The notes under the pieces are model-generated. The model was not told where the DNA came from and did not search any database. It saw only the letters and a program-made list of their open reading frames with translations. 64,000 nt of DNA from Escherichia coli (GTDB lineage Bacteria > Pseudomonadota > Gammaproteobacteria > Enterobacterales > Enterobacteriaceae): assembly GCF_001677475.2 (NCBI RefSeq), contig NZ_CP015229.1; one strand, written 5' to 3'. How positions within the stretch are numbered: position 1 is the first letter of the stretch; every line of letters starts with the position of its first letter. This document shows, one piece after another, positions 7,541-29,440 of this stretch. Both the position numbers and the translations under genes were made by a program.

Positions 7541-7932
7541 AACATACTGAACTCCGTGCAGCCGTACTGGATGCACTGGAGAAGCATGACACCGGGGCGA
7601 CGTTTTTTGATGGTCGCCCCGCTGTTTTTGATGAGGCGGATTTTCCGGCAGTTGCCGTTTATCTCACCGGCGCTGAATACACGGGCGAAGAGCTGGACAG
7701 CGATACCTGGCAGGCGGAGCTGCATATCGAAGTTTTCCTGCCTGCTCAGGTGCCGGATTCAGAGCTGGATGCGTGGATGGAGTCCCGGATTTATCCGGTG
7801 ATGAGTGATATCCCGGCACTGTCAGATTTGATCACCAGTATGGTGGCCAGCGGCTATGACTACCGGCGCGACGATGATGTGGGCCTGTGGAGTTCAGCCG
7901 ATCTGACTTATGTCATTACCTATGAAATGTGA
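7537..7932 (+). CDS. Tail terminator protein U-like
   Basis: 131 aa, lambda U size and position, ATGA overlap with Z. Confidence 0.9.
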
Positions 7933-7939
7933 GGACGCT

Positions 7940-8680: not shown

Positions 8681-8695
8681 TCCGGAGAGTCAGCG

Positions 8696-9534: not shown

Positions 9535-12088
9535 ACCGGTAGGCGATCTGGTCGTTGATTTGAGTCTGGATGCGGCCAGATTTGACGAGCAGATGGCCAG
9601 AGTCAGGCGTCATTTTTCCGGTACGGAAAGTGATGCGAAAAAAACAGCGGCAGTCGTTGAACAGTCGCTGAGCCGACAGGTGCTGGCTGCACAGAAAGCG
9701 GGGATTTCCGTCGGGCAGTATAAAGCCGCCATGCGTATGCTGCCTGCACAGTTCACCGACGTGGCCACGCAGCTTGCAGGCGGGCAAAGTCCGTGGCTGA
9801 TCCTGCTGCAACAGGGGGGGCAGGTGAAGGACTCCTTCGGCGGGATGATCCCCATGTTCAGGGGGCTTGCCGGTGCGATCACTCTGCCGATGGTCGGGGC
9901 CACCTCGCTGGCGGTGGCGACCGGTGCGCTGGCGTATGCCTGGTATCAGGGCAACTCAACCCTGTCCGATTTCAACAAAACGCTGGTCCTTTCCGGCAAT
10001 CAGGCGGGACTGACGGCAGATCGTATGCTGGTCCTGTCCAGAGCCGGGCAGGCGGCAGGGCTGACGTTTAACCAGACCAGCGAGTCACTCAGCGCACTGG
10101 TTAAGGCGGGGGTAAGCGGTGAGGCTCAGATTGCGTCCATCAGCCAGAGTGTGGCGCGTTTCTCCTCTGCATCCGGCGTGGAGGTGGACAAGGTCGCTGA
10201 AGCCTTCGGGAAGCTGACCACAGACCCGACGTCGGGGCTGACGGCGATGGCACGCCAGTTCCATAACGTGACGGCGGAGCAGATTGCGTATGTTGCTCAG
10301 TTGCAGCGTTCCGGCGATGAAGCCGGGGCATTGCAGGCGGCGAACGAGGCCGCAACGAAAGGGTTTGATGACCAGACCCGCCGCCTGAAAGAGAACATGG
10401 GCACGCTGGAGACCTGGGCAGACAGGACTGCGCGGGCATTCAAATCCATGTGGGATGCGGTGCTGGATATTGGTCGTCCTGATACCGCGCAGGAGATGCT
10501 GATTAAGGCAGAGGCTGCGTTTAAGAAAGCAGACGACATCTGGAATCTGCGCAAGGATGATTATTTTGTTAACGATGAAGCGCGGGCGCGTTACTGGGAT
10601 GATCGTGAAAAGGCCCGTCTTGCGCTTGAAGCCGCCCGAAAGAAGGCTGAGCAGCAGACTCAACAGGACAAAAATGCGCAGCAGCAGAGCGATACCGAAG
10701 CGTCACGGCTGAAATATACCGAAGAGGCGCAGAAGGCTTACGAACGGCTGCAGACGCCGCTGGAGAAATATACCGCCCGTCAGGAAGAACTGAACAAGGC
10801 ACTGAAAGACGGGAAAATCCTGCAGGCGGATTACAACACGCTGATGGCGGCGGCGAAAAAGGATTATGAAGCGACGCTGAAAAAGCCGAAACAGTCCGGC
10901 GTGAAGGTGTCTGCGGGCGATCGTCAGGAAGACAGTGCTCATGCTGCCCTGCTGACGCTTCAGGCAGAACTCCGGACGCTGGAGAAGCATGCCGGAGCGA
11001 ATGAGAAAATCAGCCAGCAGCGCCGGGATTTGTGGAAGGCAGAAAGTCAGTTCGCGGTACTGGAGGAGGCGGCACAACGTCGCCAGCTGTCCGCACAGGA
11101 GAAATCCCTGCTGGCGCATAAAGATGAGACGCTGGAGTACAAACGCCAGCTGGCTGCACTTGGCGACAAGGTTACGTATCAGGAGCGCCTGAACGCGCTG
11201 GCGCAGCAGGCGGATAAATTCGCACAGCAGCAACGGGCAAAACGGGCCGCCATTGATGCGAAAAGCCGGGGGCTGACTGACCGGCAGGCAGAACGGGAAG
11301 CCACGGAACAGCGCCTGAAGGAACAGTATGGCGATAATCCGCTGGCGCTGAATAACGTCATGTCAGAGCAGAAAAAGACCTGGGCGGCTGAAGACCAGCT
11401 TCGCGGGAGCTGGATGGCAGGCCTGAAGTCCGGCTGGAGTGAGTGGGAAGAGAGCGCCACGGACAGTATGTCGCAGGTAAAAAGTGCAGCCACGCAGACC
11501 TTTGATGGTATTGCACAGAATATGGCGGCGATGCTGACCGGCAGTGAGCAGAACTGGCGCAGCTTCACCCGTTCCGTGCTGTCCATGATGACAGAAATTC
11601 TGCTTAAGCAGGCAATGGTGGGGATTGTCGGGAGTATCGGCAGCGCCATTGGCGGGGCTGTTGGTGGCGGCGCATCCGCGTCAGGCGGTACAGCCATTCA
11701 GGCCGCTGCGGCGAAATTCCATTTTGCAACCGGAGGATTTACGGGAACCGGCGGCAAATATGAGCCAGCGGGGATTGTTCACCGTGGTGAGTTTGTCTTC
11801 ACGAAGGAGGCAACCAGCCGGATTGGCGTGGGGAATCTTTACCGGCTGATGCGCGGCTATGCCACCGGCGGTTATGTCGGTACACCGGGCAGCATGGCAG
11901 ACAGCCGGTCGCAGGCGTCCGGGACGTTTGAGCAGAATAACCATGTGGTGATTAACAACGACGGCACGAACGGGCAGATAGGTCCGGCTGCTCTGAAGAC
12001 GGTGTATGACATGGCCCGCAAGGGTGCCCGTGATGAAATTCAGACACAGATGCGTGATGGTGGCCTGTTCTCCGGAGGTGGACGATGA
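9527..12088 (+). CDS. Tail tape measure protein H-like
   Basis: 853 aa, identical in length to lambda H; coiled-coil Ala/Gln-rich middle. Confidence 0.95.
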   Translation: MAEPVGDLVVDLSLDAARFDEQMARVRRHFSGTESDAKKTAAVVEQSLSRQVLAAQKAGISVGQYKAAMRMLPAQFTDVATQLAGGQSPWLILLQQGGQVKDSFGGMIPMFRGLAGAITLPMVGATSLAVATGALAYAWYQGNSTLSDFNKTLVLSGNQAGLTADRMLVLSRAGQAAGLTFNQTSESLSALVKAGVSGEAQIASISQSVARFSSASGVEVDKVAEAFGKLTTDPTSGLTAMARQFHNVTAEQIAYVAQLQRSGDEAGALQAANEAATKGFDDQTRRLKENMGTLETWADRTARAFKSMWDAVLDIGRPDTAQEMLIKAEAAFKKADDIWNLRKDDYFVNDEARARYWDDREKARLALEAARKKAEQQTQQDKNAQQQSDTEASRLKYTEEAQKAYERLQTPLEKYTARQEELNKALKDGKILQADYNTLMAAAKKDYEATLKKPKQSGVKVSAGDRQEDSAHAALLTLQAELRTLEKHAGANEKISQQRRDLWKAESQFAVLEEAAQRRQLSAQEKSLLAHKDETLEYKRQLAALGDKVTYQERLNALAQQADKFAQQQRAKRAAIDAKSRGLTDRQAEREATEQRLKEQYGDNPLALNNVMSEQKKTWAAEDQLRGSWMAGLKSGWSEWEESATDSMSQVKSAATQTFDGIAQNMAAMLTGSEQNWRSFTRSVLSMMTEILLKQAMVGIVGSIGSAIGGAVGGGASASGGTAIQAAAAKFHFATGGFTGTGGKYEPAGIVHRGEFVFTKEATSRIGVGNLYRLMRGYATGGYVGTPGSMADSRSQASGTFEQNNHVVINNDGTNGQIGPAALKTVYDMARKGARDEIQTQMRDGGLFSGGGR

Positions 12089-12414
12089 AGACCTTCCGCT
12101 GGAAAGTGAAACCCGGTATGGATGTGGCTTCGGTCCCTTCTGTAAGAAAGGTGCGCTTTGGTGATGGCTATTCCCAGCGAGCGCCTGCCGGGCTGAATGC
12201 CAACCTGAAAACGTACAGCGTGACGCTTTCTGTCCCCCGTGAGGAGGCCACGGTACTGGAGTCGTTTCTGGAAGAGCACGGGGGCTGGAAATCCTTTCTG
12301 TGGACGCCGCCTTATGAGTGGCGGCAGATAAAGGTGACCTGCGCAAAATGGTCGTCGCGGGTCAGTATGCTGCGTGTTGAGTTCAGCGCAGAGTTTGAAC
12401 AGGTGGTGAACTGA
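12085..12414 (+). CDS. Minor tail protein M-like
   Basis: 109 aa, lambda M size and position. Confidence 0.9.
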   Translation: MKTFRWKVKPGMDVASVPSVRKVRFGDGYSQRAPAGLNANLKTYSVTLSVPREEATVLESFLEEHGGWKSFLWTPPYEWRQIKVTCAKWSSRVSMLRVEFSAEFEQVVN

Positions 12415-13112
12415 TGCAGGATATCCGGCAGGAAACACTGAATGAATGCACCCGTGCGGAGCAGTCGGCCAGCGTGGTGCTCTGGGAAATCGACCTGACA
12501 GAGGTCGGTGGAGAACGTTATTTTTTCTGTAATGAGCAGAACGAAAAAGGTGAGCCGGTCACCTGGCAGGGGCGACAGTATCAGCCGTATCCCATTCAGG
12601 GGAGCGGTTTTGAACTGAATGGCAAAGGCACCAGTACGCGCCCCACGCTGACGGTTTCTAACCTGTACGGTATGGTCACCGGGATGGCGGAAGATCTGCA
12701 GAGTCTGGTCGGCGGAACGGTGGTCCGGCGTAAGGTTTACGCCCGTTTTCTGGATGCGGTGAACTTCGTCAACGGAAACAGTGACGCCGATCCGGAGCAG
12801 GAGGTGATCAGCCGCTGGCGCATCGAGCAGTGCAGCGAACTGAGCGCGGTGAGTGCCTCCTTTGTACTGTCCACGCCGACGGAAACGGATGGCGCTGTTT
12901 TTCCGGGACGTATCATGCTGGCCAACACCTGCACCTGGACCTATCGCGGTGACGAGTGCGGTTATAGCGGTCCGGCTGTCGCGGATGAATATGACCAGCC
13001 AACGTCCGATATCACGAAGGATAAATGCAGCAAATGCCTGAGCGGTTGTAAGTTCCGCAATAACGTCGGCAACTTTGGCGGCTTCCTTTCCATTAACAAA
13101 CTTTCGCAGTAA
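12414..13112 (+). CDS. Minor tail protein L-like
   Basis: 232 aa, lambda L size; conserved Cys cluster near the C-terminus. Confidence 0.9.
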   Translation: MQDIRQETLNECTRAEQSASVVLWEIDLTEVGGERYFFCNEQNEKGEPVTWQGRQYQPYPIQGSGFELNGKGTSTRPTLTVSNLYGMVTGMAEDLQSLVGGTVVRRKVYARFLDAVNFVNGNSDADPEQEVISRWRIEQCSELSAVSASFVLSTPTETDGAVFPGRIMLANTCTWTYRGDECGYSGPAVADEYDQPTSDITKDKCSKCLSGCKFRNNVGNFGGFLSINKLSQ

Positions 13113-13117
13113 ATCCC

Positions 13118-13861
13118 ATGACACAGACAGAATCAGCGATTCTGGCGCACGCCCGGCGATGTGCGCCAGCGGAGTCGTGCGGCTTCGTGGTGAGAACGCC
13201 GGAGGGGGAAAGATATTTTCCCTGCGTGAATATTTCCGGTGAGCCGGAGGCGTATTTCCGTATGTCGCCGGAAGACTGGCTGCAGGCAGAAATGCAGGGT
13301 GAGATTGTGGCGCTGGTCCACAGCCACCCCGGTGGTCTGCCCTGGCTGAGTGAGGCCGACCGGCGGCTGCAGGTGCAGAGTGATTTGCCGTGGTGGCTGG
13401 TCTGCCGGGGGACGATTCATAAGTTCCGCTGTGTGCCGCATCTCACCGGGCGGCGCTTTGAGCACGGTGTGACGGACTGTTACACACTGTTCCGGGATGC
13501 TTATCATCTGGCGGGGATTGAGATGCCGGATTTTCATCGCGAGGATGACTGGTGGCGTAACGGCCAGAATCTCTATCTGGATAATCTGGAGGCGACGGGG
13601 CTGTATCAGGTGCCGTTGTCAGCGGCACAGCCGGGCGATGTGCTGCTGTGCTGTTTTGGTTCATCGGTGCCGAATCACGCCGCAATTTACTGCGGCGACG
13701 GCGAGCTGCTGCACCATATTCCTGAACAACTGAGCAAACGAGAGAGGTACACCGACAAATGGCAGCGACGCACACACTCCCTCTGGCGTCACCGGGCATG
13801 GCGCGCATCTGCCTTTACGGGGATTTACAACGATTTGGTCGCCGCATCGACCTTCGTGTGA
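13118..13861 (+). CDS. Tail assembly protein K-like (JAB/MPN plus NlpC/P60 domains)
   Basis: 247 aa; HSHP JAB motif and Cys/His NlpC/P60-like C-terminal half. Confidence 0.9.
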   Translation: MTQTESAILAHARRCAPAESCGFVVRTPEGERYFPCVNISGEPEAYFRMSPEDWLQAEMQGEIVALVHSHPGGLPWLSEADRRLQVQSDLPWWLVCRGTIHKFRCVPHLTGRRFEHGVTDCYTLFRDAYHLAGIEMPDFHREDDWWRNGQNLYLDNLEATGLYQVPLSAAQPGDVLLCCFGSSVPNHAAIYCGDGELLHHIPEQLSKRERYTDKWQRRTHSLWRHRAWRASAFTGIYNDLVAASTFV

Positions 13862-14430
13862 AAACGGGGGCTGAAGCCATCCGGGCACTGGCCACACAGC
13901 TCCCGGCGTTTCGTCAGAAACTGAGCGACGGCTGGTATCAGGTACGGATTGCCGGGCGGGACGTCAGCACGTCCGGGTTAACGGCGCAGTTACATGAGAC
14001 TCTGCCTGATGGCGCTGTGATTCATATTGTTCCCAGAGTCGCCGGGGCCAAGTCAGGTGGCGTATTCCAGATTGTCCTGGGGGCTGCCGCCATTGCCGGA
14101 TCATTCTTTACCGCCGGAGCCACCCTTGCAGCATGGGGGGCAGCCATTGGGGCCGGTGGTATGACCGGCATCCTGTTTTCTCTCGGTGCCAGTATGGTGC
14201 TCGGTGGTGTGGCGCAGATGCTGGCACCGAAAGCCAGAACTCCCCGTACACAGACAACGGATAACGGTAAGCAGAACACCTATTTCTCCTCACTGGATAA
14301 CATGGTTGCCCAGGGCAATGTTCTGCCTGTTCTGTACGGGGAAATGCGCGTGGGGTCACGCGTGGTTTCTCAGGAGATCAGCACGGCAGACGAAGGGGAC
14401 GGTGGTCAGGTTGTGGTGATTGGTCGCTGA
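13759..14430 (+). CDS. Tail assembly protein I-like
   Basis: 223 aa, lambda I size; Gly/Ala-rich hydrophobic middle; overlaps the K 3' end. Confidence 0.85.
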   Translation: MAATHTLPLASPGMARICLYGDLQRFGRRIDLRVKTGAEAIRALATQLPAFRQKLSDGWYQVRIAGRDVSTSGLTAQLHETLPDGAVIHIVPRVAGAKSGGVFQIVLGAAAIAGSFFTAGATLAAWGAAIGAGGMTGILFSLGASMVLGGVAQMLAPKARTPRTQTTDNGKQNTYFSSLDNMVAQGNVLPVLYGEMRVGSRVVSQEISTADEGDGGQVVVIGR

Positions 14431-14490
14431 TGCAAAATGTTTTATGTGAAACCGCCTGCGGGCGGTTTTGTCATTTATGGAGCGTGAGGA

Positions 14491-15919
14491 ATGGGTAAAG
14501 GAAGCAGTAAGGGGCATACCCCGCGCGAAGCGAAGGACAACCTGAAGTCCACGCAGTTGCTGAGTGTGATCGATGCCATCAGCGAAGGGCCGGTTGAAGG
14601 TCCGGTGGATGGATTAAAAAGCGTGCTGCTGAACAGTACGCCGGTGCTGGACACTGAGGGGAATACCAACATCTCCGGTATCACGGTGGTGTTCCGTGCC
14701 GGTGAGCAGGAGCAGACACCGCCGGAGGGGTTTGAATCCTCCGGCTCCGAGACGGTGCTGGGTACGGAAGTGAAATATGACACGCCGATCACCCGCACCA
14801 TTACGTCTGCAAACATCGACCGTCTGCGCTTTACCTTCGGTGTACAGGCACTGGTGGAAACCACCTCAAAGGGTGACAGGAATCCGTCGGAAGTCCGTCT
14901 GCTGGTTCAGATACAACGTAACGGTGGCTGGGTGACGGAAAAAGACATCACCATTAAGGGCAAAACCACCTCGCAGTATCTGGCCTCGGTGGTGGTGGAT
15001 AACCTGCCGCCGCGCCCGTTTAATATCCGGATGCGCAGGATGACGCCGGACAGCACCACAGACCAGCTGCAGAACAAAACGCTCTGGTCGTCATACACCG
15101 AAATTATCGATGTGAAACAGGGCTACCCGAACACGGCACTGGTCGGCGTGCAGGTGGACTCGGAGCAGTTCGGCAGCCAGCAGGTGAGCCGTAATTATCA
15201 TCTGCGCGGGCGTATTCTGCAGGTGCCGTCGAATTATAACCCGCAGACGCGGCAATACAGCGGTATCTGGGACGGAACGTTTAAACCGGCATACAGCAAC
15301 AACATGGCCTGGTGTCTGTGGGATATGCTGACCCATCCGCGCTACGGCATGGGGAAACGTCTTGGTGCGGCGGATGTGGACAAATGGGCGCTGTATGTCA
15401 TCGGCCAGTACTGCGACCAGTCAGTACCGGACGGCTTTGGCGGCACGGAGCCGCGCATCACCTGTAATGCATACCTGACCACACAGCGCAAGGCGTGGGA
15501 TGTGCTCAGTGATTTCTGCTCGGCGATGCGCTGTATGCCGGTATGGAACGGGCAGACGCTGACGTTCGTGCAGGACCGACCATCAGATAAGGTGTGGACC
15601 TATAACCGCAGTAATGTGGTGATGCCGGATGATGGCGCGCCGTTCCGCTACAGCTTCAGCGCCCTGAAGGACCGCCATAATGCCGTTGAGGTGAACTGGA
15701 TTGACCCGAACAACGGCTGGGAGACGGCGACAGAGCTTGTTGAAGATACGCAGGCCATTGCCCGTTACGGTCGTAATGTCACGAAGATGGATGCCTTTGG
15801 CTGTACCAGCCGGGGGCAGGCACACCGCGCCGGGCTGTGGCTGATTAAAACGGAACTGCTGGAGACGCAGACCGTGGATTTCAGCGTGGGTGCTGAAGGG
15901 CTTCGCCATGTACCGGGTA
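14491..15919 (+). pseudogene. Tip attachment / host specificity protein J, N-terminal fragment, interrupted by an IS
   Basis: ORF 14491..15933 is collinear with lambda J through ...GLRHVPG, then runs into IS sequence and stops. Confidence 0.85.
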
Positions 15920-16010
15920 TGAGACGACAATAACTCAGTCCGCCTGGCGCCGATTATTCTGGCCGGTTTTGTAACCTGAGTGTCATTTACATGATCCAAC
16001 AGGAAATGGC

Positions 16011-17510
16011 GTGACGCTCAATACTTCTCAGGTCAGTTACTATATGACTCAGCGTAAGAAAGGTATAACTCAGCATATCTCGGCCATGAAGGCTGGTATC
16101 TCAGTCCGTTCTGGTCGTCGGATCGAAAAAGGAGAGTGGGCAAAAAACAGTGTTCGGCACTGGCGCACACGCAAAGATCCTCTGGAAGCTGTGTGGGACA
16201 GCATGCTTGTTCCTCTGTTGAAAGAGAGGCCGGCTCTGACACCAACAACTCTACTGGAGATGCTACAGGATAAATATCCCGGCCAGTACCCCAACAGCCT
16301 TCGAAGAACAATGCAACGGCGGGTTCGCGAATGGAAACTACAGTATGGTACAGAGCAGGAGGTCATGTTCCGCCAGCAACATCAGCCCGGCCTGCGAGGC
16401 CTGTCGGACTTTACTGAACTGAAAGGTGTAGTTGTCACCATCGCCGGTAAGTTGTTGGCGCATAAGTTGTATCACTTCCGTCTGGAATGGAGCCACTGGA
16501 GCTGGATGCGGGTTGTTCTGGGTGGTGAGAGCTTCTCTGCTCTGGCTGAAGGCCTGCAGGAAGCCCTCGGACAACTGGGCGGAGTGCCGGTAGAACATAA
16601 AACGGACAGCCTGAGGGCAGCATGGAAACAACAGGGCGAAGATGGACGCCGCGAGCTGACTGAGCGTTATGCTACTCTCTGTCAGCACTACGGAATGCAG
16701 GGCGTACACAATAATGCCGGTCGGGGCCACGAAAATGGCTCGGTTGAAAGTGCCCACGGACATCTGAAAAGGCGTATCTGTCAGGCGCTGATACTGCGGG
16801 GCAGTAACGACTTCAGCACCATAGAAGAATATCAGGCCTTCATCACTCAGCAGGTTATGCGGCACAACCGTAACAATCAGGATCTGGTCAAGGAAGAACG
16901 TCTTCATCTGAAACCGCTGCCGCTTCGTCGCAGTGCTGACTATGATGAGCTGACTGTGAGGGTTAGTCGCAGCAGTACCATCAATGTGAAGCACGTCGTC
17001 TACAGCGTACCTTCCCGGCTTGTAGGTCAACTGTTACGGGTCAGGTTATGGGACGATCGTCTGAGCTGTTACGTTGGCAGCAGCGAGGTCATGAGCTGCC
17101 CTCGCGTCAGACCAGAAAAAGGGAAGACGCGGGCCCGTCGTATCGACTTCCGACATGTGATCGACAGTCTGGCAAAAAAGCCCGGTGCGTTCTGCCATGC
17201 AACGCTGAGAAATGACATCCTGCCGGACGATGAATGGCGGAGGCTGTGGCGTCGCTTATGTAATCATCTGGAGCCCGATATGGCAGGAAGGCTGATGGTA
17301 CATGCCCTGAAACTGGCTGCAGGATACGACGATATCTCAGTCGTGGCAAAAGGTATGGAGCAGATGCTGAATACCCCGGGAAACGTGGATCTGCACCGGC
17401 TGATGCGCTTCCTGGGTATAAAAGAAAAGGCGTTGCCGGTAGTCAATGTGATACAGCATAACCTGAGCAGTTATGAGCAACTACTGCGTGGCAAGGGAGG
17501 TTCGCAGTGA
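16011..17510 (+). CDS. istA: IS21-family transposase IstA
   Basis: 499 aa; N-terminal HTH-like region plus DDE core; overlaps istB by 4 nt. Confidence 0.85.
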   Translation: MTLNTSQVSYYMTQRKKGITQHISAMKAGISVRSGRRIEKGEWAKNSVRHWRTRKDPLEAVWDSMLVPLLKERPALTPTTLLEMLQDKYPGQYPNSLRRTMQRRVREWKLQYGTEQEVMFRQQHQPGLRGLSDFTELKGVVVTIAGKLLAHKLYHFRLEWSHWSWMRVVLGGESFSALAEGLQEALGQLGGVPVEHKTDSLRAAWKQQGEDGRRELTERYATLCQHYGMQGVHNNAGRGHENGSVESAHGHLKRRICQALILRGSNDFSTIEEYQAFITQQVMRHNRNNQDLVKEERLHLKPLPLRRSADYDELTVRVSRSSTINVKHVVYSVPSRLVGQLLRVRLWDDRLSCYVGSSEVMSCPRVRPEKGKTRARRIDFRHVIDSLAKKPGAFCHATLRNDILPDDEWRRLWRRLCNHLEPDMAGRLMVHALKLAAGYDDISVVAKGMEQMLNTPGNVDLHRLMRFLGIKEKALPVVNVIQHNLSSYEQLLRGKGGSQ

Positions 17511-18262
17511 GCAATATCCATCACCTTGAACATAGCCTGCGTAAACTACGCCTGACACGAGTTGGAGCTGAATGGCACGCTCTGGAAAAACGAGCGCTGG
17601 CAGAAGGCTGGACACCATCGCGCTATCTTCTGACGCTATGCAATGAAGAACTCCTGTGGCGCGAGAGTGAAAAACTGCGTCGTTATAAAAAGGAGGCCCG
17701 GTTGCCAGTTGCCAAAACGCTGAGCGAATACGACTTCAGTCAGGTGCCGGAACTGAATGGAGCTCAGTTCCGGCAACTCTGTGAAACGACAGACTGGGTT
17801 GATGCAGGAGAAAACGTTCTGCTGTTCGGAGCCAGCGGGTTGGGGAAAAGCCATCTGGCGGCAGCGATCGTGGATGGCGTAGTAGGTCAGGGCTACCGGG
17901 CCCGGTTCTACAGCGCAGGAGAGCTGTTGCAGGAACTACGTAAAGCCAGAGCTCAGTTGAAACTGAATGAGCTGCTACTGAAACTGGATCGCTACCGGGT
18001 GATAGTGGTGGATGATCTTGGCTATGTCAAACGCGATAGTGCCGAAACGGGTGTGCTGTTCGAGTTAATAGCGCATCGCTATGAACGTGGGAGCCTGGTG
18101 ATAACCAGTAACCATCCGTTCAGCATGTGGGGCAGCATCTTCGTGGATGAGACTATGGCGGTGGCTGCGGCAGACAGGCTGATCCATCACGGATATATGT
18201 TCGAACTGAAAGGGGAAAGCTACAGGAAAAAGACAGCGAAGGCAGTAACAAGCGCGACTTGA
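17507..18262 (+). CDS. istB: IS21-family helper ATPase IstB
   Basis: 251 aa; Walker A GASGLGKSH and Walker B VIVVDDLGY. Confidence 0.9.
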   Translation: MSNIHHLEHSLRKLRLTRVGAEWHALEKRALAEGWTPSRYLLTLCNEELLWRESEKLRRYKKEARLPVAKTLSEYDFSQVPELNGAQFRQLCETTDWVDAGENVLLFGASGLGKSHLAAAIVDGVVGQGYRARFYSAGELLQELRKARAQLKLNELLLKLDRYRVIVVDDLGYVKRDSAETGVLFELIAHRYERGSLVITSNHPFSMWGSIFVDETMAVAAADRLIHHGYMFELKGESYRKKTAKAVTSAT

Positions 18263-18325
18263 TGTCGCCCTGAAGGGTGCGGCCAGTATAGTTGGCGCGA
18301 GTCGGCAAAACTAGTTGACGTCTAA

Positions 18326-20320
18326 TAACCGGGCGATGTCATTGAAATCTGCGATGATGACTATGCCGGTATCAGCACCGGTGGTCGCGTGCTGGCGGTG
18401 AACAGCCAGACCCGGACGCTGACGCTCGACCGTGAAATCACGCTGCCATCCTCCGGTACCACGCTGATAAGCCTGGTTGACGGAAGTGGTAATCCGGTCA
18501 GCGTGGAGGTTCAGTCCGTCACCGACGGACTTAAGGTGAAAGTGAACCGGGTTCCTGACGGCGTTGCAGAATACAGCGTGTGGGGGCTGAAGCTGCCGAC
18601 GCTGCGCCAGCGCCTGTTCCGCTGCGTGAGTATCCGTGAGAACGACGACGGCACGTATGCCATCACTGCCGTGCAGCATGTACCGGAAAAAGAAGCCATC
18701 GTGGATAACGGGGCGCACTTTGACGGCGACCAGAGCGGCACGGTGAATGGTGTCACGCCGCCAGCGGTGCAGCACCTGACCGCCGAAGTCACCGCAGACA
18801 GCGGGGAATATCAGGTGCTGGCGCGCTGGGACACGCCGAAGGTGGTGAAGGGCGTGAGCTTCCTGCTCCGTCTGACCGTAACAGCGGATGACGGCAGTGA
18901 GCGGCTGGTCAGCACGGCCCGGACGACGGAAACCACATACCGCTTCACGCAACTGGCGCTGGGGAACTACAGGCTGACAGTCCGGGCGGTAAATGCGTGG
19001 GGGCAGCAGGGCGATCCGGCGTCGGTATCGTTCCGGATTGCCGCACCGGCAGCACCGTCGAGGATTGAGCTGACGCCGGGCTATTTTCAGATAACCGCCA
19101 CGCCGCATCTTGCCGTTTATGACCCGACGGTACAGTTTGAGTTCTGGTTCTCGGAAAAGCGGATTACCGATATCAGGCAGGTTGAAACCACAGCCCGCTA
19201 TCTTGGTACGGCGCTGTACTGGATAGCCGCCAGTATCAATATCAAACCGGGCCATGATTATTACTTTTATATCCGCAGTGTGAACACCGTTGGCAAATCG
19301 GCATTCGTGGAGGGCGTCGGTCGGGCGAGCGATGATGCGGAAGGTTACCTGGATTTTTTCAAAGGCAAGATAACCGAATCCCATCTCGGTAAAGAGCTGC
19401 TGGAAAAAGTTGATTTGACGGAGGATAACGCCAGCAGACTGGATGAGTTTTCGAAAGAGTGGAAGGACGCTAACGATAAATGGAATGCCATGTGGGGCGT
19501 CAAAATTGAGCAGACCAAAGACGGCAAACATTATGTCGCGGGTATTGGCCTCAGCATGGAGGACACGGAGGAAGGCAAGCTGAGCCAGTTTCTGGTTGCC
19601 GCTAACCGTATCGCGTTTATTGACCCGGCAAACGGGAATGAAACGCCGATGTTTGTGGCGCAGGGCAACCAGATATTCATGAACGACGTGTTCCTGAAGC
19701 GCCTGACAGCCCCCACCATTACCAGCGGTGGCAGTCCTCCGGTATTTTCCCTGACATCAGACGGAAAGCTGACCGCTAAAAATGCGGATATCAGTGGTAG
19801 TGTGAATGCGAACTCAGGAACGCTCAACAATGTCACGATTAACCAGAACTGTACGATTAAGGGCATGCTGGAGGCGACTCAGGTCAGAGGTGACTTCGTT
19901 AAAGCTGTATCCAAATCATTTCCGAAACAGGCTGGTACGTGGGGTAACACGGAAACACCAAACGGGACGGTTACAGTCACCATCAGCGATGATCATAACT
20001 TTGACCGTCAAATCATTATTCCGCCCATTATCTTTAACGGAATAGCGTATAGCGATCCGGGAAGTGGTAATAACCCGGGAGGTACAAGATACACGGGTTA
20101 TGGTTTTGAAGTTCGCAAAAACGGTGTATTAATCGCATCCAGAGAAACTAAAGGGGCCATTCCCGGTAGCTACAGTGCGGTTATTGATATGCCGAGTGGC
20201 AGGGGAAGCGTCACTCTGGAGTTTAAGGTTTTCCATAAAGGCAATCAGTGGGCAGGTAATATCACCGACTGTACGGTGATTGTGACCAAAAAAGCCGCTT
20301 CCGGCATCAGTATTCGTTGA
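18326..20320 (+). pseudogene. Tip attachment / host specificity protein J, C-terminal fragment
   Basis: Frame continues the lambda J sequence ([13 protein letters not shown]...) directly after the IS; ORF 18389..20320 covers most of it. Confidence 0.85.
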
Positions 20321-20341
20321 AATTGTTATAACCCATATAAG

Positions 20342-20365
20342 GGCACCAGAAATGGTGCCTTTTTT
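20342..20365 (+). terminator. Rho-independent terminator after J
   Basis: ggcacca-gaaa-tggtgcc hairpin followed by tttttt. Confidence 0.6.
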
Positions 20366-20389
20366 ATTGCAGAAAAGCGAGAGGTAATT

Positions 20390-20989
20390 ATGCGTAAACT
20401 TTATGCCGCCATTTTGTCCGCAGCCATTTGTCTGGCCGTATCCGGTGCGCTTGCATGGGCATCTGAACATCAGTCCACGCTGAGCGCGGGGTATCTTCAT
20501 GCCCGGACCAACGTTCCCGGCAGTGATGATCTGAACGGGATTAACGTGAAATACCGTTATGAGTTTACGGATACGCTGGGGCTGGTGACGTCATTCAGCT
20601 ATGCAGGAGACAAGAATCGCCAGCTGACCCGTTACAGCGATACCCGCTGGCATGAAGATTCCGTGCGTAACCGCTGGTTCAGCGTGATGGCGGGGCCGTC
20701 TGTGCGCGTGAATGAATGGTTCAGCGCGTATGCGATGGCGGGTATGGCTTACAGCCGTGTTTCGACTTTTTCCGGGGATTACCTTCGCGTAACTGACAAC
20801 AAGGGGAAAACGCACGATGTGCTGACCGGAAGTGATGACGGTCGCCACAGCAACACGTCTCTGGCGTGGGGGGCTGGCGTGCAGTTTAACCCGACCGAAT
20901 CCGTGGCCATTGATATTGCTTATGAAGGTTCTGGCAGTGGTGACTGGCGCACTGACGGTTTCATCGTGGGTGTCGGTTATAAATTCTGA
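20390..20989 (+). CDS. lom: Lom-like outer membrane protein (Ail/Lom family)
   Basis: 199 aa, signal peptide, beta-barrel pattern ending in a C-terminal aromatic residue; lambda position right after J. Confidence 0.9.
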   Translation: MRKLYAAILSAAICLAVSGALAWASEHQSTLSAGYLHARTNVPGSDDLNGINVKYRYEFTDTLGLVTSFSYAGDKNRQLTRYSDTRWHEDSVRNRWFSVMAGPSVRVNEWFSAYAMAGMAYSRVSTFSGDYLRVTDNKGKTHDVLTGSDDGRHSNTSLAWGAGVQFNPTESVAIDIAYEGSGSGDWRTDGFIVGVGYKF

Positions 20990-21053
20990 TTAGCCAGGTA
21001 ACACAGTGTTATGACAGCCCGCCGGTTCAGGTGGGCTTTTTTGTGGGGGGAAT

Positions 21054-23993
21054 ATGGCAGTAAAGATTTCAGGTGTACTGAAAGACGGCACAGGAAAACC
21101 GGTACAGAACTGCACAATCCAGCTGAAAGCAAAACGTAACAGCACCACGGTGGTGGTGAACACGCTGGCCTCAGAAAATCCGGATGAAGCCGGGCGTTAT
21201 AGCATGGACGTTGAGTACGGTCAGTACAGCGTTATTCTGTTGGTGGAAGGATGCCCGCCGTCACATGCCGGGACCATCACCGTGTATGAAGATTCCCGAC
21301 CCGGTACGCTGAATGATTTTCTCGGTGCCATGACGGAGGATGATGCCCGTCCGGAGGCTCTGCGCCGTTTTGAACTGATGGTGGAAGAGGTGGCGCGTAA
21401 CGCGTCCGCGGTGGCACAGAACACGGCAGCCGCGAAGAAGTCAGCCGGCGATGCCGGCACATCTGCCCGTGAGGCGGCAACCCATGCGACTGATGCTGCA
21501 GATTCAGCACGTGCAGCCAGCACGTCAGCCGGACAGGCCGCGACGTCAGCTCAGGAGGCTTTTTCCTGCGCAGGAACGGCATCAGCAAAAGCCTCTGAGG
21601 CATCAAAAAGTGCTGCCGCTGCAGAGTCCTCAAAAAGCGCGGCGGCCACCAGTGCCGGTGCCGCGAAAACGTCTGAAACGAATGCTGCAGCGTCACAACA
21701 ATCAGCAGCCACTTCTGCATCCACCGCGACCACGAAAGCGTCAGAAGCTGCCACCTCAGCCCGGGATGCGTCGGCTTCAAAAGAGGCGGCAAAATCATCA
21801 GAAACGAGCGCAGCCTCGAGCGCAAGTAGTTCCGCTTCCTCGGCAACAGCGGCAGCAAATTCTGCGAAGGCGGCAAAAACGTCCGAGACGAACGCCAGGT
21901 CTTCTGAAACGGCAGCGGAACAGAGCGCCTCAGCTGCGGCAGGTTCAGAAACTACCGCTGCATCATCAGCCCGTGAGGCGTCAGTCAAAGCGGAGGAGGC
22001 TGCAGCCAGTGCCACTGCCGCCGGAAAATCGGCAGAAAGCGCCGCATCATCCGCTTCAACAGCCACAACGAAGGCTGGCGAAGCCACTGAACAGGCCAGC
22101 GCAGCAGCGAGGTCAGCTTCCGCAGCGAAGACATCCGAAACGAACGCGAAAGCGTCGGAAACCAGCGCAGAATCCTCAAAAACGGCTGCCGCATCGTCCG
22201 CCAGTTCGGCGGCGTCATCGGCCTCATCGGCGTCTGCTTCAAAAGATGAGGCGACCAGACAAGCGTCAGCAGCGAAGGGCAGCGCCACGACGGCATCCAC
22301 GAAGGCAACAGAGGCTGCTGGCAGTGCGACGGCGGCAGCACAGAGCAAAAGTACGGCGGAATCCGCGGCAACGCGCGCCGAGACAGCGGCAAAACGGGCA
22401 GAGGATATTGCATCCGCCGTGGCGCTTGAGGATGCGAGCACGACGAAAAAGGGGATAGTACAGCTCAGCAGTGCGACCAACAGCACTTCCGAGTCACAGG
22501 CGGCAACGCCAAAGGCAGTAAAAGCAGCCAATGACAATGCTGAGAAACGTCTGCAGAAAGATCAGAACGGTGCGGATATCCCTGGCAAAGACACCTTTAC
22601 GAAAAATATTGGTGCCTGCCGTGCCTTCGGTGGGTCAGTAAGCACAACAACAGGAAACTGGACGACTGCACAGTTTATCGAGTGGCTGGATTCTCAGGGA
22701 GCATTTAACCATCCATACTGGATGTGCAAGGGTTCCTGGTCTTATGGCAATAATAAAATCATTACTGATACTGGCTGCGGTAATATTCATCTCGCCGGAG
22801 CTGTCATTGAAGTAATGGGGATAAAGTCAGCGATGACGATCCGCATTACCACTCCGACTACATCCAGCGGTGGCGGAACAACCAACGCCCAGTTTACCTA
22901 TATTAATCACGGAACAGATTATTCACCTGGCTGGCGAAGGGACTATAACTCCAGAAATAAGCCAACGGCATCAGAGATCGGGGCGCTACCGTCAGGTGGA
23001 ACAGCAGTATCATCAGTTAATCTGGCTTCAAAAGGTCGGGTAGCCGCGCTGACAGACAATACGCAGGGGGCAGCAGGTCTTGAGTTATACGAGGTGTATA
23101 ACAACGGATATCCAACAGCGTATGGAAATATCATTCACCTGAAAGGGATGACAGCCGTTGGCGAAGGTGAGTTACTCATCGGCTGGAGTGGTACAAGCGG
23201 TGCTCATGCTCCGGCATTTATTCGTTCACGACGGGATACGACCGACGCAAACTGGTCGCCGTGGGCGCAGCTTTACACCTCGGCTCATCCTCCTGCAGAG
23301 TTTTATCCAGTCGGTGCACCAATCCCGTGGCCATCAGATACCGTTCCGTCTGGCTATGCCCTGATGCAGGGGCAGACTTTTGACAAATCTGCATACCCGA
23401 AACTTGCAGCGGCTTATCCGTCAGGCGTTATTCCTGATATGCGTGGCTGGACGATTAAGGGCAAGCCCGCCAGTGGTCGTGCCGTATTGTCTCAGGAACA
23501 GGACGGCATTAAATCGCACACCCACAGCGCCAGCGCATCCAGTACGGATTTGGGGACGAAAACCACATCGTCGTTTGATTACGGCACTAAATCCACGAAT
23601 AACACCGGTGCGCATACCCATAGTTTAAGTGGCAGCACGAATGCGGCTGGTAATCACAGCCATAGAGATGGCCGTCGATTTAACCCCAGTGTTTTTAAAG
23701 ATACTTATCAATATGGTTATACAAGCTCAGGTCAAAATACCTGGGGGGTACAAGGCTCAGTAGGTATGTCTACGGGGTGGTTAGCTAATACCAGTACAGA
23801 TGGTAATCATAGCCACTCACTGTCCGGTACAGCAGTATCTGCAGGTGCACACGCGCATACTGTCGGTATTGGTGCTCATACGCACTCCGTTGCGATAGGG
23901 TCACATGGACACACCATCACCGTTAACGCTGCTGGTAACGCGGAAAACACCGTCAAAAACATCGCATTTAACTATATTGTGAGGCTTGCATGA
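21054..23993 (+). CDS. stf: Side tail fibre protein Stf-like
   Basis: 979 aa; N-terminus matches the lambda Stf N-terminal domain; long Ala/Ser/Thr-rich repeat shaft; C-terminal His-x-His repeats. Confidence 0.9.
21380..22450. repeat. Low-complexity Ala/Ser/Thr/Glu-rich repeat region inside stf
   Basis: Roughly 350 codons of degenerate SAA/TSE/AAK repeats; GC-rich and free of stops in several frames. Confidence 0.6.
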
Positions 23994-24892
23994 TTACGCT
24001 CATTCTTTCTGCACCAGTAACAGAAATGGCTGAAGCATTTAAGCGGGTATTCGCAAATGCAGATAATGTGAATATTGTCGGAAAGCCATTTGAAACAATC
24101 AGGGAATTTGACTGCATGGTAAGTGCGGCAAACAGTTTCGGCCTGATGGATGGCGGTGTTGATGCCGCCATTACCGCATTCTTCGGTACTCAGTTACAGT
24201 CCCGCGTTCAGAATCATATTCTTCGTGAATATCTCGGCGAGCAGCCTGTAGGTTCTGCATTTGTTATTGAAACGGGGCATAATCATCATCCCTGGCTGGT
24301 ACATGCGCCAACAATGCGTGTTCCGCTGACAATTGACGGAACAGACGCTGTATATAACGCAACCTGGGCCGCTCTGCTTGCCATCTTTCAGCACAATAAA
24401 CACGCAACGACAGACAGGAAAATAAAAACGGTGGTATTCCCTGCAATGGGAGCCGGATGTGGTCAGGTGCCGTTTGAAAGTGTTGCCCGGCAGATGAAGC
24501 AGGCATGGGATAACTTTAATAAAAAAACAGAATCAATTAACTGGGAATACGCACAATCCCGCCAGTCGGCAGTATTTGGCACATATGCATACTGTCCGGG
24601 TAATTCTGTTTGCCGTTATGCGGATACTAAATATATTGGATGCGGCGATTATCGGACGTATTGCTCACGTTCCGGGCAGGTCTGTATTAACCCTGAACAT
24701 CAGGCTGATGATGTACTGATACAACATCAGGCTAATAACCGGTTTCGCCCTGGTTCGCATATACACCGGATTAATCCAGAAAATCCCGTAGGTAATGTCA
24801 TCTCTGGCGCACATAGCCACGGAAGTAGCATCGTTATTGGTGCTCACACCCATACGCTCAATAAACAATATTCTGTCTCTGATATTAAGTAG
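23990..24892 (+). CDS. Protein with macrodomain-like N-terminus (putative ADP-ribose binding/hydrolase) and Cys/His-rich fibre-tip-like C-terminus
   Basis: 300 aa; start overlaps the stf stop (ATGA); motifs [18 protein letters not shown] and [12 protein letters not shown] resemble the two macrodomain signature blocks; C-terminal GSHIH, GAHSHG, GAHTHT repeats. Confidence 0.6.
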
Positions 24893-24900
24893 AGGTGAAC

Positions 24901-25476
24901 ATGGATTTCAGAATGAGTGAACAACCACGGACCATAACAATTTATAATCTGCTGGCCGGAACTAATGAATTTATTGGTGAAGGTGATGCATATATTCCGC
25001 CTCATACAGGTCTGCCAGCAAACAGTACCGATATTGCACCGCCAGATATTCCGGCTGGCTTTGTGGCTGTTTTCAACAGTGATGAGGCATCGTGGCATCT
25101 CGTTGAAGACCATCGGGGTAAAACCGTCTATGACGTGGCTTCCGGCGACGCGTTATTTATTTCTGAACTTGGCCCATTACCGGAAAATGTCACTTGGTTA
25201 TCCCCGGAAGGGGAGTTTCAGAAGTGGAACGGCACAGCCTGGGTGAAGGATACGGAAGCAGAAAAACTGTTCCGGATCCGGGAGGCGGAAGAAACAAAAA
25301 ACAACCTGATGCAGGTAGCCAGTGAGCATATTGCGCCGCTTCAGGATGCTGCAGATCTGGAAATTGCAACGGAGGAAGAAATCTCGTTGCTGGAAGCATG
25401 GAAAAAGTATCGGGTATTGCTGAACCGTGTTGATACGTCAACTGCACAGGATATTGAATGGCCAGCACTGCCGTAG
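24901..25476 (+). CDS. tfa: Tail fibre assembly protein Tfa-like
   Basis: Collinear with lambda Tfa ([75 protein letters not shown]...). Confidence 0.9.
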
Positions 25477-25573
25477 GGTAAAACATATAAATTCTATAAT
25501 TAGATGTATCTTTCCATTTACGGCAAGGAAGGGGGCTTGGAAGACGTAAAGCATCTCACACCGAGATTATTTT

Positions 25574-26164
25574 TTATATGTCAGGTGTCTGAAGTTTTGC
25601 TTTGGCTCTTAAAATGGTTTGCCGCGAGGTTTTGAATTCCCGGGCAATGGCACTTATACTTACACCTGACTTAATTCGTTCGAATACCACCTGTTTCTGT
25701 TCTTCATTTAACACAGGTGGTCGACCAAAACGTTTCCCTGCGCCCCGGGCTCTTACTATCCCGGAATGAGTGCGTTCAAGTAAAAGGTCTCGTTCAAATT
25801 CAGCGACTGCTGAAATTACTTGCATCATCATTTTTCCTGTTGGACTGGTCAGGTCAATGCCCCCCAATGCTAAGCAATGCACTCTGATACCTGTTTCGGT
25901 CAGTTGTTCCACTGTTTTCCTGATATCCATTGCATTACAACCAAGGCGATCCAGTTTTGTCACAATCAATTGATCACCACATTTCAGGCGAGCAAGCAAC
26001 CGGTTAAAACCAGGACGCTCACTGGTTGCTGCTGAGCCGCTAATGTGTTCTTCGATTATTTGCTGAGGTTTGATTTTAAAACCTGCACTTTCGATTTCCC
26101 GGCGTTGATTTTCGGGGGTCTGATCCAGCGTTGATATCCGACAGTAAGCAAAAATTCGAGACAT
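25574..26164 (-). CDS. Small serine recombinase (resolvase/invertase family)
   Basis: 196 aa; N-terminal catalytic block YCRISTLDQ (Ser nucleophile), [11 protein letters not shown]-terminal HTH. Confidence 0.85.
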
Positions 26165-26543
26165 AGTGAGACTCTATACGAAATTGGTGTACATATCATA
26201 ATGCATATCCAAAAATTATTTCGCTTATTATTGTACATATTTGTATGTATACGTTCGAAAATAAACGAATTCGGATGCAGTCCCGTAATTTTGGTGTAAC
26301 CAAAAATCGATTTTTTGAAAAATGGCTTTAACTCGGTTTGTTTTTCGAACTCCGGGCGGACTCGAGGAAGACGAATAATAGTGTTGTATGTTATTTTAAC
26401 CAGATTTTAAGTTGTTTGGTCGTGGAAAAGTGGAGCAAAATGTTGTTAAAGTGGAAAAATGGTAAAAAAAGTAGGTTGTTGCGGAATAACGTAGTTGTTG
26501 ATATTTTTTTAATGCATTGAAAAATTATTTTTCAGGGGGGGTA

Positions 26544-26810
26544 TTACACTTTACCATTTAAATTTTGGTTGTCTTTAAGAACTGATATCGCTGTTTGTAA
26601 TAATTCTTTGTTATCCAGCCATGACTTTTTCTTTATGTTTCCTTCAATGTAATCAAGCAATGTTCTGGTATTGATAGGTCTTCCCTGTTTTGCTACTTCC
26701 ACGACAGCATCTCCCAGGATAATTCTGACTTCAGGAAGCTGCGCAGGGAACCACTTTAGGGTGTCTTTTGATTTCATGAAGATATTCCTTAAAATATTAT
26801 TGGTTTTCAT
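26544..26810 (-). CDS. Hypothetical protein in AT-rich prophage accessory region
   Basis: 88 aa ORF, the only ORF of 60 aa or more in a ~1.2 kb AT-rich stretch; no family recognised. Confidence 0.4.
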   Translation of the reverse strand: MKTNNILRNIFMKSKDTLKWFPAQLPEVRIILGDAVVEVAKQGRPINTRTLLDYIEGNIKKKSWLDNKELLQTAISVLKDNQNLNGKV

Positions 26811-27385
26811 TGCAATATTGTATGTCTGATTCAGGATATGTTGACTTATACATCGGTTTTGTCCGGGTTATTGGATATGCCAATCCCTAATTTTATTAGA
26901 GCATGACCAAAAATGCTGAATATGATAAGTAGTGAAGTGATTATCAGTATGCTGTTCATATAGCCTCGAATTAGTATGGTGTTATATATAATATAGTTGA
27001 CAATTTTTATCCTGGGTGTTCTTAAAGTTCGTAGATGAACCCTGTAGTTTCAGGTATACAGGAATGCTTACAGATAGCGGCAAAAGTCAGGAGGTTAATG
27101 GCGCAAACTGAAGGGGTAGCTGCGAACTAACTTAGGTAGAGACTCTACACGGATTCGGTTTAAAAGTATACATAGATAACAATTTTTATCTGAAGAAGAA
27201 AAATATTAAGGTGATATGGTCATATATACTTTAATGCGGAAGAATGAATGTGATGAGAGTGCTGTATCTGAATGGTTGAAAAACCGCAGACACGTCGTAT
27301 GCAAGAACGTGCTGCGGTTGGCTGGTGAACTTCCGATAGTGCGAGTATTGAATGATTTCCAGCCGTTACCGATTTTACGTGTTAA

Positions 27386-27634
27386 TTAGTGAACAAACCA
27401 CTCGTCAGCAGACTCCCAGGTATCTTTCAGAGTTTCCTGAACAAAAGTTTTAGCTGAATCTTTATCGGCGGTGCGCGTAACAGAAAGGCCATCGTTGCTG
27501 GTGGCTTTTACGATCACCTCTACATCGTCATAACGCTTACTGATGCGTCGAGTTAATTCTTCCTTTAACGCATCCACAGCACCGTTTGGCATTTTAGTCA
27601 TTTTCTCTTTGGCTATGCAGATCTCAATACGCAT
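27386..27634 (-). CDS. DinI-family protein (prophage-encoded DinI-like)
   Basis: 82 aa; MRIE..IAK...GA.DAL..EL.RRI and C-terminal [10 protein letters not shown] match the DinI family. Confidence 0.85.
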
Positions 27635-27647
27635 AAAAATCCCTCTA

Positions 27648-27695
27648 CACTGTGTTTGTATACAGTGTTATTTTTAACTGTATGAATAAACAGTG
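27648..27695 (-). promoter_or_regulatory. Two tandem LexA (SOS) boxes upstream of the dinI-like gene
   Basis: cACTGTgtttgtatACAGTg (27648-27667) and aaCTGTatgaataaACAGtg (27676-27695); both fit CTGT-N8-ACAG. Confidence 0.6.
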
Positions 27696-27853
27696 TCAAT
27701 AGAACAAAGATTGCTGCATGTACAAATGTTCTTTGGCTACAAATACACCTACTGATCATGTTCTGCTATGCTCTGATACCTCCAAAATGTACAATCAGCG
27801 GCATGAATTTTTCTTTGTACATATGATTGTACATAATCAAAGAGACAACAATT

Positions 27854-29440
27854 ATGACAAGCCTTTTGGCCGCAGAGGTAGCGAAAAGAAGAACCTTTGC
27901 AATTATTTCTCACCCGGACGCCGGTAAAACAACCATCACCGAGAAGGTGCTGCTGTTCGGACAGGCCATTCAGACCGCCGGTACAGTAAAAGGCCGTGGC
28001 TCTAACCAGCACGCTAAGTCGGACTGGATGGAGATGGAAAAGCAGCGTGGGATCTCCATTACCACGTCTGTGATGCAGTTTCCGTATCACGACTGCCTGG
28101 TTAACCTGCTCGACACCCCGGGGCACGAAGACTTCTCGGAAGATACCTATCGTACTCTGACGGCGGTGGACTGCTGCCTGATGGTTATCGACGCTGCAAA
28201 AGGTGTTGAAGATCGTACCCGCAAGCTGATGGAAGTTACCCGTCTGCGCGACACGCCGATCCTCACCTTTATGAACAAACTTGACCGTGATATCCGCGAC
28301 CCGATGGAGCTGCTCGATGAAGTTGAGAACGAGCTGAAAATCGGCTGTGCACCGATCACCTGGCCGATTGGCTGCGGCAAGCTGTTTAAAGGCGTTTACC
28401 ACCTTTATAAAGATGAAACCTATCTTTATCAGAGCGGTAAAGGCCACACCATTCAGGAAGTCCGCATTGTTAAAGGGCTGAATAACCCGGATCTCGATGC
28501 TGCGGTTGGTGAAGATCTGGCGCAGCAGCTGCGTGACGAACTGGAACTGGTGAAAGGCGCGTCTAACGAGTTCGACAAAGAGCTGTTCCTTGCGGGCGAA
28601 ATCACTCCGGTATTCTTCGGTACTGCGCTGGGTAACTTCGGCGTTGATCATATGCTGGATGGCCTGGTGGAGTGGGCCCCTGCGCCGATGCCGCGTCAGA
28701 CTGATACCCGTACCGTAGAGGCGAGCGAAGACAAATTTACCGGCTTCGTATTTAAAATTCAGGCCAACATGGACCCGAAACACCGCGACCGCGTGGCGTT
28801 TATGCGTGTGGTGTCCGGTAAATATGAAAAAGGCATGAAGCTGCGCCAGGTGCGTACTGCGAAAGATGTGGTGATCTCCGACGCGCTGACCTTTATGGCG
28901 GGTGACCGTTCGCACGTTGAAGAAGCGTATCCTGGCGATATCCTCGGCCTGCACAACCACGGCACCATTCAGATCGGCGACACCTTTACCCAGGGTGAGA
29001 TGATGAAGTTCACCGGTATTCCGAACTTCGCGCCAGAACTGTTCCGTCGTATCCGCCTGAAAGATCCGCTGAAGCAAAAACAGCTGCTTAAAGGGCTGGT
29101 ACAGCTTTCCGAAGAGGGCGCGGTGCAGGTGTTCCGTCCGATCTCCAACAACGATCTGATCGTTGGTGCGGTTGGTGTGCTGCAGTTTGATGTGGTGGTA
29201 GCGCGTCTGAAGAGCGAATACAACGTTGAAGCAGTGTATGAGTCAGTCAACGTTGCCACTGCCCGCTGGGTAGAATGTGCGGACGCGAAGAAATTCGAAG
29301 AGTTCAAGCGTAAGAACGAAAGCCAACTGGCGCTTGATGGCGGCGATAACCTCGCTTACATCGCTACCAGCATGGTCAATCTGCGCCTGGCGCAGGAACG
29401 TTATCCGGACGTTCAGTTCCACCAGACCCGCGAGCATTAA
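27854..29440 (+). CDS. prfC: Peptide chain release factor 3
   Basis: GTPase motifs [24 protein letters not shown]; full-length collinear RF3; start at the ATG at 27854 inside ORF 27827..29440. Confidence 0.95.

Follow-up and report, generated by a model that had tools for sequence, protein, structure and literature searches.

A hybrid prfC gene at the right end of a lambdoid prophage in Escherichia coli

The prophage end and the prfC gene at the junction

The window, a stretch of 64,000 nucleotides of E. coli DNA (contig NZ_CP015229.1), contains the right-hand portion of a lambdoid prophage (1..27901, plus strand), which consists of a late, structural module, tail fibre genes, an invertase, a DinI-like gene and the P arm of an attachment site, and which is followed directly by a prfC gene for RF3. 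Pfam domains detected in the prophage include GpJ, tail fibre, resolvase and DinI, and positions 1-21403 are about 97% identical to lambda-like phages (Lambda_4C10, phage 21, PhiR63_2) over 69-71% of the query. The lambda-type morphogenesis module, with its GpJ domains and its ~97% match, identifies the prophage as lambdoid. Neither cdt nor stx was found between the tail genes and the DinI-like gene of this prophage.

The last phage gene before the junction is the DinI-like gene (27386..27634, minus strand; Pfam PF06183, DinI, E = 1.2e-19). The same gene is labelled 'DinI-like family protein' in strain YDC107, and its counterpart in phage cdtI is orf30, which adjoins attP. Two palindromes of the form CTG-N10-CAG with AT-rich spacers, CTGTGTTTGTATACAG (27650-27665) and CTGTATGAATAAACAG (27678-27693), lie 28 bp apart and overlap a promoter-like site of the DinI-like gene (TTGACA-18-AAAAAT, 27699-27670, minus strand). 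In this form both palindromes conform to the LexA consensus, which suggests that the phage dinI homologue may be SOS-controlled through LexA binding at these putative boxes. Besides, the first palindrome together with a run of T (27647-27668) resembles a terminator on the plus strand, facing prfC.

Further upstream, the tail-tip gene J (14491-20320) is split into an N-terminal part (14491-15933) and a C-terminal part (18389-20320), and an element of the IS21 family lies within it, with a transposase-like ORF at 16011-17510 and an IstB ATPase at 17507-18262. Since J is disrupted by this element, this copy of the prophage is probably no longer viable or infectious. In the region 23990-26164, the ORFs for tail fibre and tail fibre assembly are immediately followed by a Pin/Gin-type serine recombinase (25574-26164, minus strand; Pfam Resolvase and HTH_7), which suggests an invertible host-range segment. 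A repeat search found neither the ends of the IS inside J nor a clear invertible segment; near the recombinase it returned only a weak 14-nt inverted repeat (24125-24138 / 25612-25625).

From the sequence and the ORF list, the ATG of the window prfC is at position 27854, and the gene (27854..29440, plus strand; 528 aa) joins a phage-derived 5' end to a host-derived body, as the ORF list and BLASTP show. A preliminary description of this locus had stated that phage DNA reaches prfC with no host gene in between, that the first residues of PrfC depart from the K-12 start, and that the protein is otherwise collinear. All three statements proved right. The nearest gene upstream is the DinI-like gene, preceded by prophage tail genes, and yjjG, whose presence upstream would have spoken for another arrangement, is not at the junction: in YDC107 it is found about 47 kb upstream, beside attL and the integrase. 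The K-12 PrfC N-terminus is MTLSPYLQEVAKRR (529 aa; K-12-derived Stbl4, L001:2478-4067), and BLASTP as well as direct comparison with K-12 show that the window PrfC starts differently. Residues 9-529 of the K-12 protein are 100% identical to residues 8-528 of the window protein (BLASTP). The difference between hybrid and native RF3 is thus confined to the first 7 residues (8 in the native protein), and within them to residues 3-7, the hybrid being one residue shorter. The reading frame is restored in a 528-aa ORF in which codons 8-16 are kept through synonymous changes alone, and the YDC107 annotation of the same hybrid ORF is an intact prfC (WP_000202563.1).

Attachment sites, core and distribution

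The junction was resolved by a four-way alignment in which attP was taken from the free phage cdtI, attL from YDC107, attR from the window, and attB from K-12 and strain 405. The attL site and the integrase gene lie outside the window and were read in YDC107 and PhiR63_1, which stand in for the source genome; YDC107 is 99.9% identical to the window over 801 bp at the junction (megablast). The gene order in YDC107 is rsmC-holD-rimI-yjjG, about 47 kb upstream, then a 69-bp pseudogene annotated as 'missing its C-terminus', then a tyrosine integrase.

The only stretch identical in attP, attL, attR and attB is the 14-bp core ATTATTTCTCACCC (27902..27915, plus strand), the site of strand exchange, which covers prfC codons 17-21 (IISHP). 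In attP, the phage-left sequence is followed by ATTATTTCTCACCC and the phage-right sequence (CAATAATTAA...), and in attB the native prfC 5' end is followed by ATTATTTCTCACCC and GGACGCCGG..., while attL consists of the native prfC 5' end, the core and phage-right sequence, and attR of phage-left sequence, the core and host sequence. The four sites fit the Campbell model, P-O-P' x B-O-B' giving B-O-P' and P-O-B', exactly. The expectation that a duplicated core would be found at the other prophage end was borne out in YDC107, as the same 14 bp are common to the window attR, the YDC107 attL and the empty prfC locus. The core had further been placed within the first ~40 nt of prfC; it does overlap the 5' end of the gene, but it occupies nt 49-62 (27902-27915). 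Depositors of the Stx2c/Stx1a prophage records LC727876-902 annotate the same 14 bp as 'duplication due to insertion'. In phage cdtI, attP sits between the DinI-like orf30 and the integrase orf32, and the free-phage genomes of cdtI, 2H10 and Ayreon all carry an uninterrupted attP flanked by the DinI-like gene and int.

On the B' side, the host-derived part of prfC (27916..29440, plus strand) is identical to the empty-site strain 405 from the core to at least 28100. Strain 405 has the window sequence on the right-hand side of the core and the native one on the left-hand side, and the attR of Stx2c_PV98-693 combines the same phage 5' end with a K-12-type downstream haplotype; these patterns indicate that the origin of the sequence switches exactly at the core. 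We also considered a longer core, in which downstream differences from K-12 (AAA ACA, GGC TCT etc.) would be phage-derived, and rejected it, as the empty-site strain 405 carries these differences too. To the left of the core, the phage supplies prfC codons 1-16 (27854..27901, plus strand), which are identical in the cdtI attP and differ from attB and attL, and, before the ATG, an initiation region (27840..27853, plus strand; AAGAGACAACAATT) that resembles the native AAGAAGAAAGAATT and may serve as ribosome-binding site (RBS).

The module is widely distributed. The whole DinI-prfC junction (megablast of 27300-28100) was found in 644 of the 5426 complete E. coli genomes, and in the other E. coli genomes the match started only near 27874; a junction that recurs to this extent is not due to chance. 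The phage-type 5' end (116 bp, 27800-27915) is present in 699 of the 5426 genomes (~13%) and was located at prfC in every sampled row, the set including O145:H28, O111:H8 and the ExPEC strain IHE3034. Among phages, window positions 27700-27915 are at least 99% identical in 33 records, including the isolated phages cdtI, 2H10 and Ayreon. The P arm and codons 1-16 are conserved at the same level (>=99%) in cdtI, 2H10, Ayreon, PhiR63_1 and Stx1a/Stx2c phages, and over positions 27386-27914 the window is 99.2% identical to cdtI, 99.8% to 2H10 and 100% to PhiR63_1.

Strain SCU-306 (NZ_CP053231.1, L009:2094-2665; 87% identity) was the one divergent E. coli hit; it was examined as a variant and rejected on account of an indel-ridden assembly. 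Its attR is annotated with a frameshift in DinI and with prfC as a pseudogene that lacks the N-terminus, a decay that is most likely an artefact of assembly errors. The phage-type prfC 5' end occurs two or three times in some E. coli genomes, and plasmids carry two of the copies. Such multiplicity could stem from prophages arranged in tandem at prfC, a case discussed in PMC10132054, or from attP sites of copies that are unintegrated or reside on plasmids.

Two other origins of the junction have to be weighed against phage integration. The divergent N-terminus could be ordinary allelic variation of prfC, or a recombination tract, with a prophage upstream by coincidence, and synonymous polymorphism among strains does exist in prfC downstream of the core. 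However, the divergent 48 nt adjoin phage DNA without a break in free-phage genomes lacking any other prfC sequence, prophage-free genomes keep the native 5' end even where, as in strain 405, the rest of prfC equals that of the window, and the native 5' end persists as a remnant at attL, all of which makes this explanation extremely improbable. We give just as little credence to the junction being the work of a conjugative element of the SXT/R391 type rather than of a phage. Such integrative and conjugative elements (ICEs) target the same codons and rebuild the N-terminus in the same way, as seen at the ICE attR of E. coli XH1815, and their integrases are homologous to that of the phage, but the window has lambdoid DNA (J, tail fibres, DinI-like gene) on the left side of the core, the left arm equals the cdtI attP and is unlike the right end of the ICE with its setR, and the supplied N-terminus differs. 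To the left of the core, the window and the XH1815 attR share little apart from a short CCTTTGC stretch adjoining the core, and a search of the window attR for the marks of an SXT/R391 ICE, i.e., setR or conjugation genes and an ICE-type prfC 5' end, found neither, the upstream DNA being lambdoid. We therefore hold with high confidence that window positions 27635-27915 are the attR of a lambdoid prophage carrying the prfC-type module of cdt-I/Stx phages, with a hybrid RF3. The integration event proposed in the preliminary description is supported by these data and matches the published case (PMC2323221).

Translation and expression of the hybrid gene

Based on the structure of the four attachment sites, we propose the following scheme. 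The phage attP was recombined with the 14-bp core ATTATTTCTCACCC in codons 17-21 of prfC by a tyrosine integrase that belongs to the IntSXT subgroup and whose gene is predicted at the opposite end of the prophage, beyond the window. A remnant of 23 codons at attL would be what is left of the native promoter region, RBS and codons 1-16. The P arm carries its own prfC initiation region and codons 1-16, and integration therefore regenerates a full-length, in-frame prfC. The hybrid gene would then be transcribed from phage DNA and give a functional product, as we infer from the features considered below.

Codons 1-7 of the phage-supplied segment encode a peptide different from that of the host, whereas codons 8-16 encode EVAKRRTFA as in the host, despite 8 nucleotide differences in 27 nt, all of which (8/8) are synonymous. 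In a simulation with random placements of 8 substitutions, the peptide was kept in 1 of 10^6 cases. A divergence that is synonymous only is a signature of selection on the translated product, and argues that the hybrid is translated. Selection was assessed by comparison with the host prfC, the phage copies being too uniform; diverged copies of the phage-borne prfC 5' segment were sought for a selection test among the 33 phage records and none was found, all 33 being at least 99% identical. Wherever a sampled lysogen had a well-assembled genome, its hybrid ORF proved to be uninterrupted and was labelled prfC.

The source of transcription is less evident. The preliminary description had the phage supplying both a replacement start and a promoter. 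The first part stands, in the form of the RBS region and codons 1-16, whereas for the second a sigma-70 consensus scan of the plus strand upstream of 27854 returned no site at threshold. The same scan detected a site at threshold, TTGCCT-16-TAAAAT, in the native K-12 yjjG-prfC spacer. In a weighted scan, the best plus-strand candidate was TTTTCT-17-CATAAT (27809-27837), which is weaker than the native TTGCCT-16-TAAAAT; all these promoter calls are consensus matches only. We rejected this candidate as the promoter of the hybrid gene because it is weak and because transcription would begin past the putative RBS, with the RBS-like AAGAG cut off.

These scans bear on the sole live rival of our reading, namely that the insertion silences prfC, leaving an intact ORF that has lost its promoter and is not expressed, a loss that would be tolerated because prfC is not essential. 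The lack of a threshold site before 27854, where the native spacer has one, is in line with silencing, and so is the terminator-like score, on the plus strand, of the palindrome and T-run at 27647-27668. Ogura et al. (2007; PMC2323221) call the expression of prfC in such lysogens unknown and report that prfC is absent from the essential-gene list. On the other hand, many real promoters escape consensus scans, and a promoter has been reported for the analogous junction of SXT. The RBS-like AAGAG is retained at a native-like spacing, the module is conserved at >=99% in the 33 phage records, and the hybrid ORF is intact in the sampled genomes of the 699-genome set. EVAKRRTFA, too, is retained through 8 synonymous changes, an outcome with a chance of about 1e-6. 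On these grounds we regard silencing as unlikely and, given the retained peptide, the hybrid gene as very probably expressed.

The integrase, its candidate arm-type sites and related elements at prfC

The YDC107 integrase (L003:14753-15976), next to which the attL with the native prfC remnant is found, is 98% identical to the cdtI integrase. It contains the domains Arm-DNA-bind_3 (PF13356, E = 1.9e-16), Phage_int_M (PF22022) and Phage_integrase (PF00589), and is 38% identical over its full length (404 aa, E = 7e-89) to the integrase of the ICE R997. Its N-terminal DUF4102/Arm-DNA-bind_3 domain and its catalytic Phage_integrase domain, together with this likeness, place it in the IntSXT subgroup. 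The cdt1 phage integrase and IntSXT have been placed in one cluster, both inserting at prfC (Smyshlyaev 2021, PMC8138268).

The P arm in the window holds four TGTACA motifs (at 27719, 27788, 27816 and 27828; 27719..27833), which are candidate arm-type sites of the integrase. The last two form a tandem pair with a spacing of 12 bp, 86 and 74 bp before the core. The 64-kb window contains 11 TGTACA in total, about the chance expectation, and 4 of the 11 fall within the 115 bp before the hybrid start. Four further TGTACA are found past the core, in the part of the P' arm just upstream of int; they are conserved in cdtI, YDC107 and PhiR63_1, although the bases around them vary. In R997, pairs of GTGTACAAA occur in both arms, 12-13 bp apart, the P-arm pair lying 87 and 75 bp before the core. 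The Morganella morganii element pMM1680-3 and the Pantoea alfalfae element p1_CQ10, whose integrases are 50% and 57% identical, respectively, to that of the prfC phage, have pairs of GTGTACATA with a 12-bp spacing upstream of int (L012:1180-1200 and 1440-1470 in the former, L013:1455-1480 in the latter), so that GTGTACA(A/T)A pairs with a spacing of 12-13 bp flank the att/int region in R997 as well as in the Morganella and Pantoea elements. Judging from this recurrence in sequence, the TGTACA repeats are probably the arm-type sites to which integrases of this clade bind with their N-terminal domain. A search of the literature in the searchable library for TGTACA arm sites returned only unrelated papers and no description of them.

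Two of the records used here deserve a comment. The Morganella pMM1680-3 is a 39-kb circle in which DinI-like gene, att and int follow one another in the same order; it resembles a phage genome that was deposited as a plasmid. R997 (NZ_KY433363.1, 'plasmid pR997'; L007:1-30, L008:1555-1569) is an SXT/R391 ICE listed as a circular plasmid. The ends of NZ_KY433363.1 join ...TTTGCTATCATC to ATTATTTCCCACCCTGATGCC, with six core bases doubled, and the junction is therefore not a true attP.

The insertion at prfC and the change of the RF3 N-terminus have been known since 2007, and prfC is an established integration hot spot, used by cdt-I phages, Stx phages and the SXT/R391 resistance elements alike. 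Ogura et al. (2007) described an Stx1 phage in prfC of O103, with the N-terminal residues of RF3 changed and the native RBS and promoter removed (PMC2323221), and both Stx1a and Stx2c phages have been found at prfC (Nakamura et al. 2023, PMC10132054). In the passages of PMC2786100, PMC8409611 and PMC5812530 that cite Hochhut & Waldor (1999), SXT/R391 ICEs are described as inserting at prfC. The small addition made here is that TGTACA repeats in both att arms are common to this phage module, SXT/R391 and other relatives of the integrase. The present case also illustrates that an intragenic phage attachment site can be recognised from raw sequence alone.

The closest known systems are the cdt-I and Stx phages of prfC. 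The Cdt-I phage (AB285204), reportedly described by Asakura in 2007, as well as 2H10, Ayreon and the Stx1a/Stx2c prfC prophages, have a P arm and a copy of the prfC 5' end that are 99-100% identical to those of the window, with the same 14-bp core, the same order of DinI-like gene, attP and int, and the published consequence for RF3. The window prophage differs from them in its cargo and in its mosaic late genes, as it has neither cdt nor stx between the tail genes and the DinI-like gene and its J is interrupted by the IS21-family element. Its late genes are ~97% identical to those of the lambda/phage 21 type, which use other att sites, while its att module is that of cdtI, 2H10 and PhiR63_1, and this difference in affinity points to an int/att cassette that moves between lambdoid backbones.

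Insertion into a coding gene with preservation of its frame is also seen in other lambdoid prophages, such as phage 21 and e14 at icd and Rac at ttcA, where the element provides a substitute gene end. The insertion at icd replaces the 3' end, so that no promoter or RBS needs to be supplied, whereas in the window the 5' end is concerned. Elements specific for dusA, e.g., IMEVchUSA3 (PMC8409611), likewise enter a conserved gene at its 5' end, but with another target gene and another integrase, and with a longer altered segment (35 residues, 61% identity).

The comparison with SXT/R391 reaches further. Seven E. coli genomes were found with an ICE of this type at prfC, and in XH1815 the ICE attR reads ...ACCTTTGCT ATCATCTCC CACCCGGACGCC..., again with a hybrid RF3. 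Compared with the phage attR, this site indicates that ICE and phage exchange strands within the same few codons (IISHP), and each of them brings its own codons 1 to ~17, with a new N-terminus ending in KRRTFA before the core. The ICE integrase belongs to the clade of the phage integrase (38% identity, same domain set), and TGTACA-type repeats are found in both att arms, with the tandem pair at 87/75 bp in the ICE and 86/74 bp in the phage. Differences are evident as well: SXT/R391 is a conjugative element and the window prophage a phage, the peptide supplied by the ICE (MANQDFLNEIN) is different, and setR abuts the ICE attR where the DinI-like gene abuts that of the phage. Besides, the ICE core differs from the E. 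coli attB at three positions, so that the ICE-derived sequence extends further, to ATCATCTCC, and only the ICE junction, not the phage one, has a reported promoter.

Taking these likenesses in sequence together, we offer only tentatively the idea, which we consider possible but rather doubtful, that the att modules of the phage and of SXT/R391 are one homologous recombination module. If this were true, an integrase bound beside the hybrid start could make the expression of RF3 depend on the state of the element, and phages and ICEs could compete for, or be arrayed in tandem at, each other's regenerated cores. The TGTACA arm sites, if real, would help to predict such competition or tandem insertion of toxin phages and resistance ICEs at one locus.
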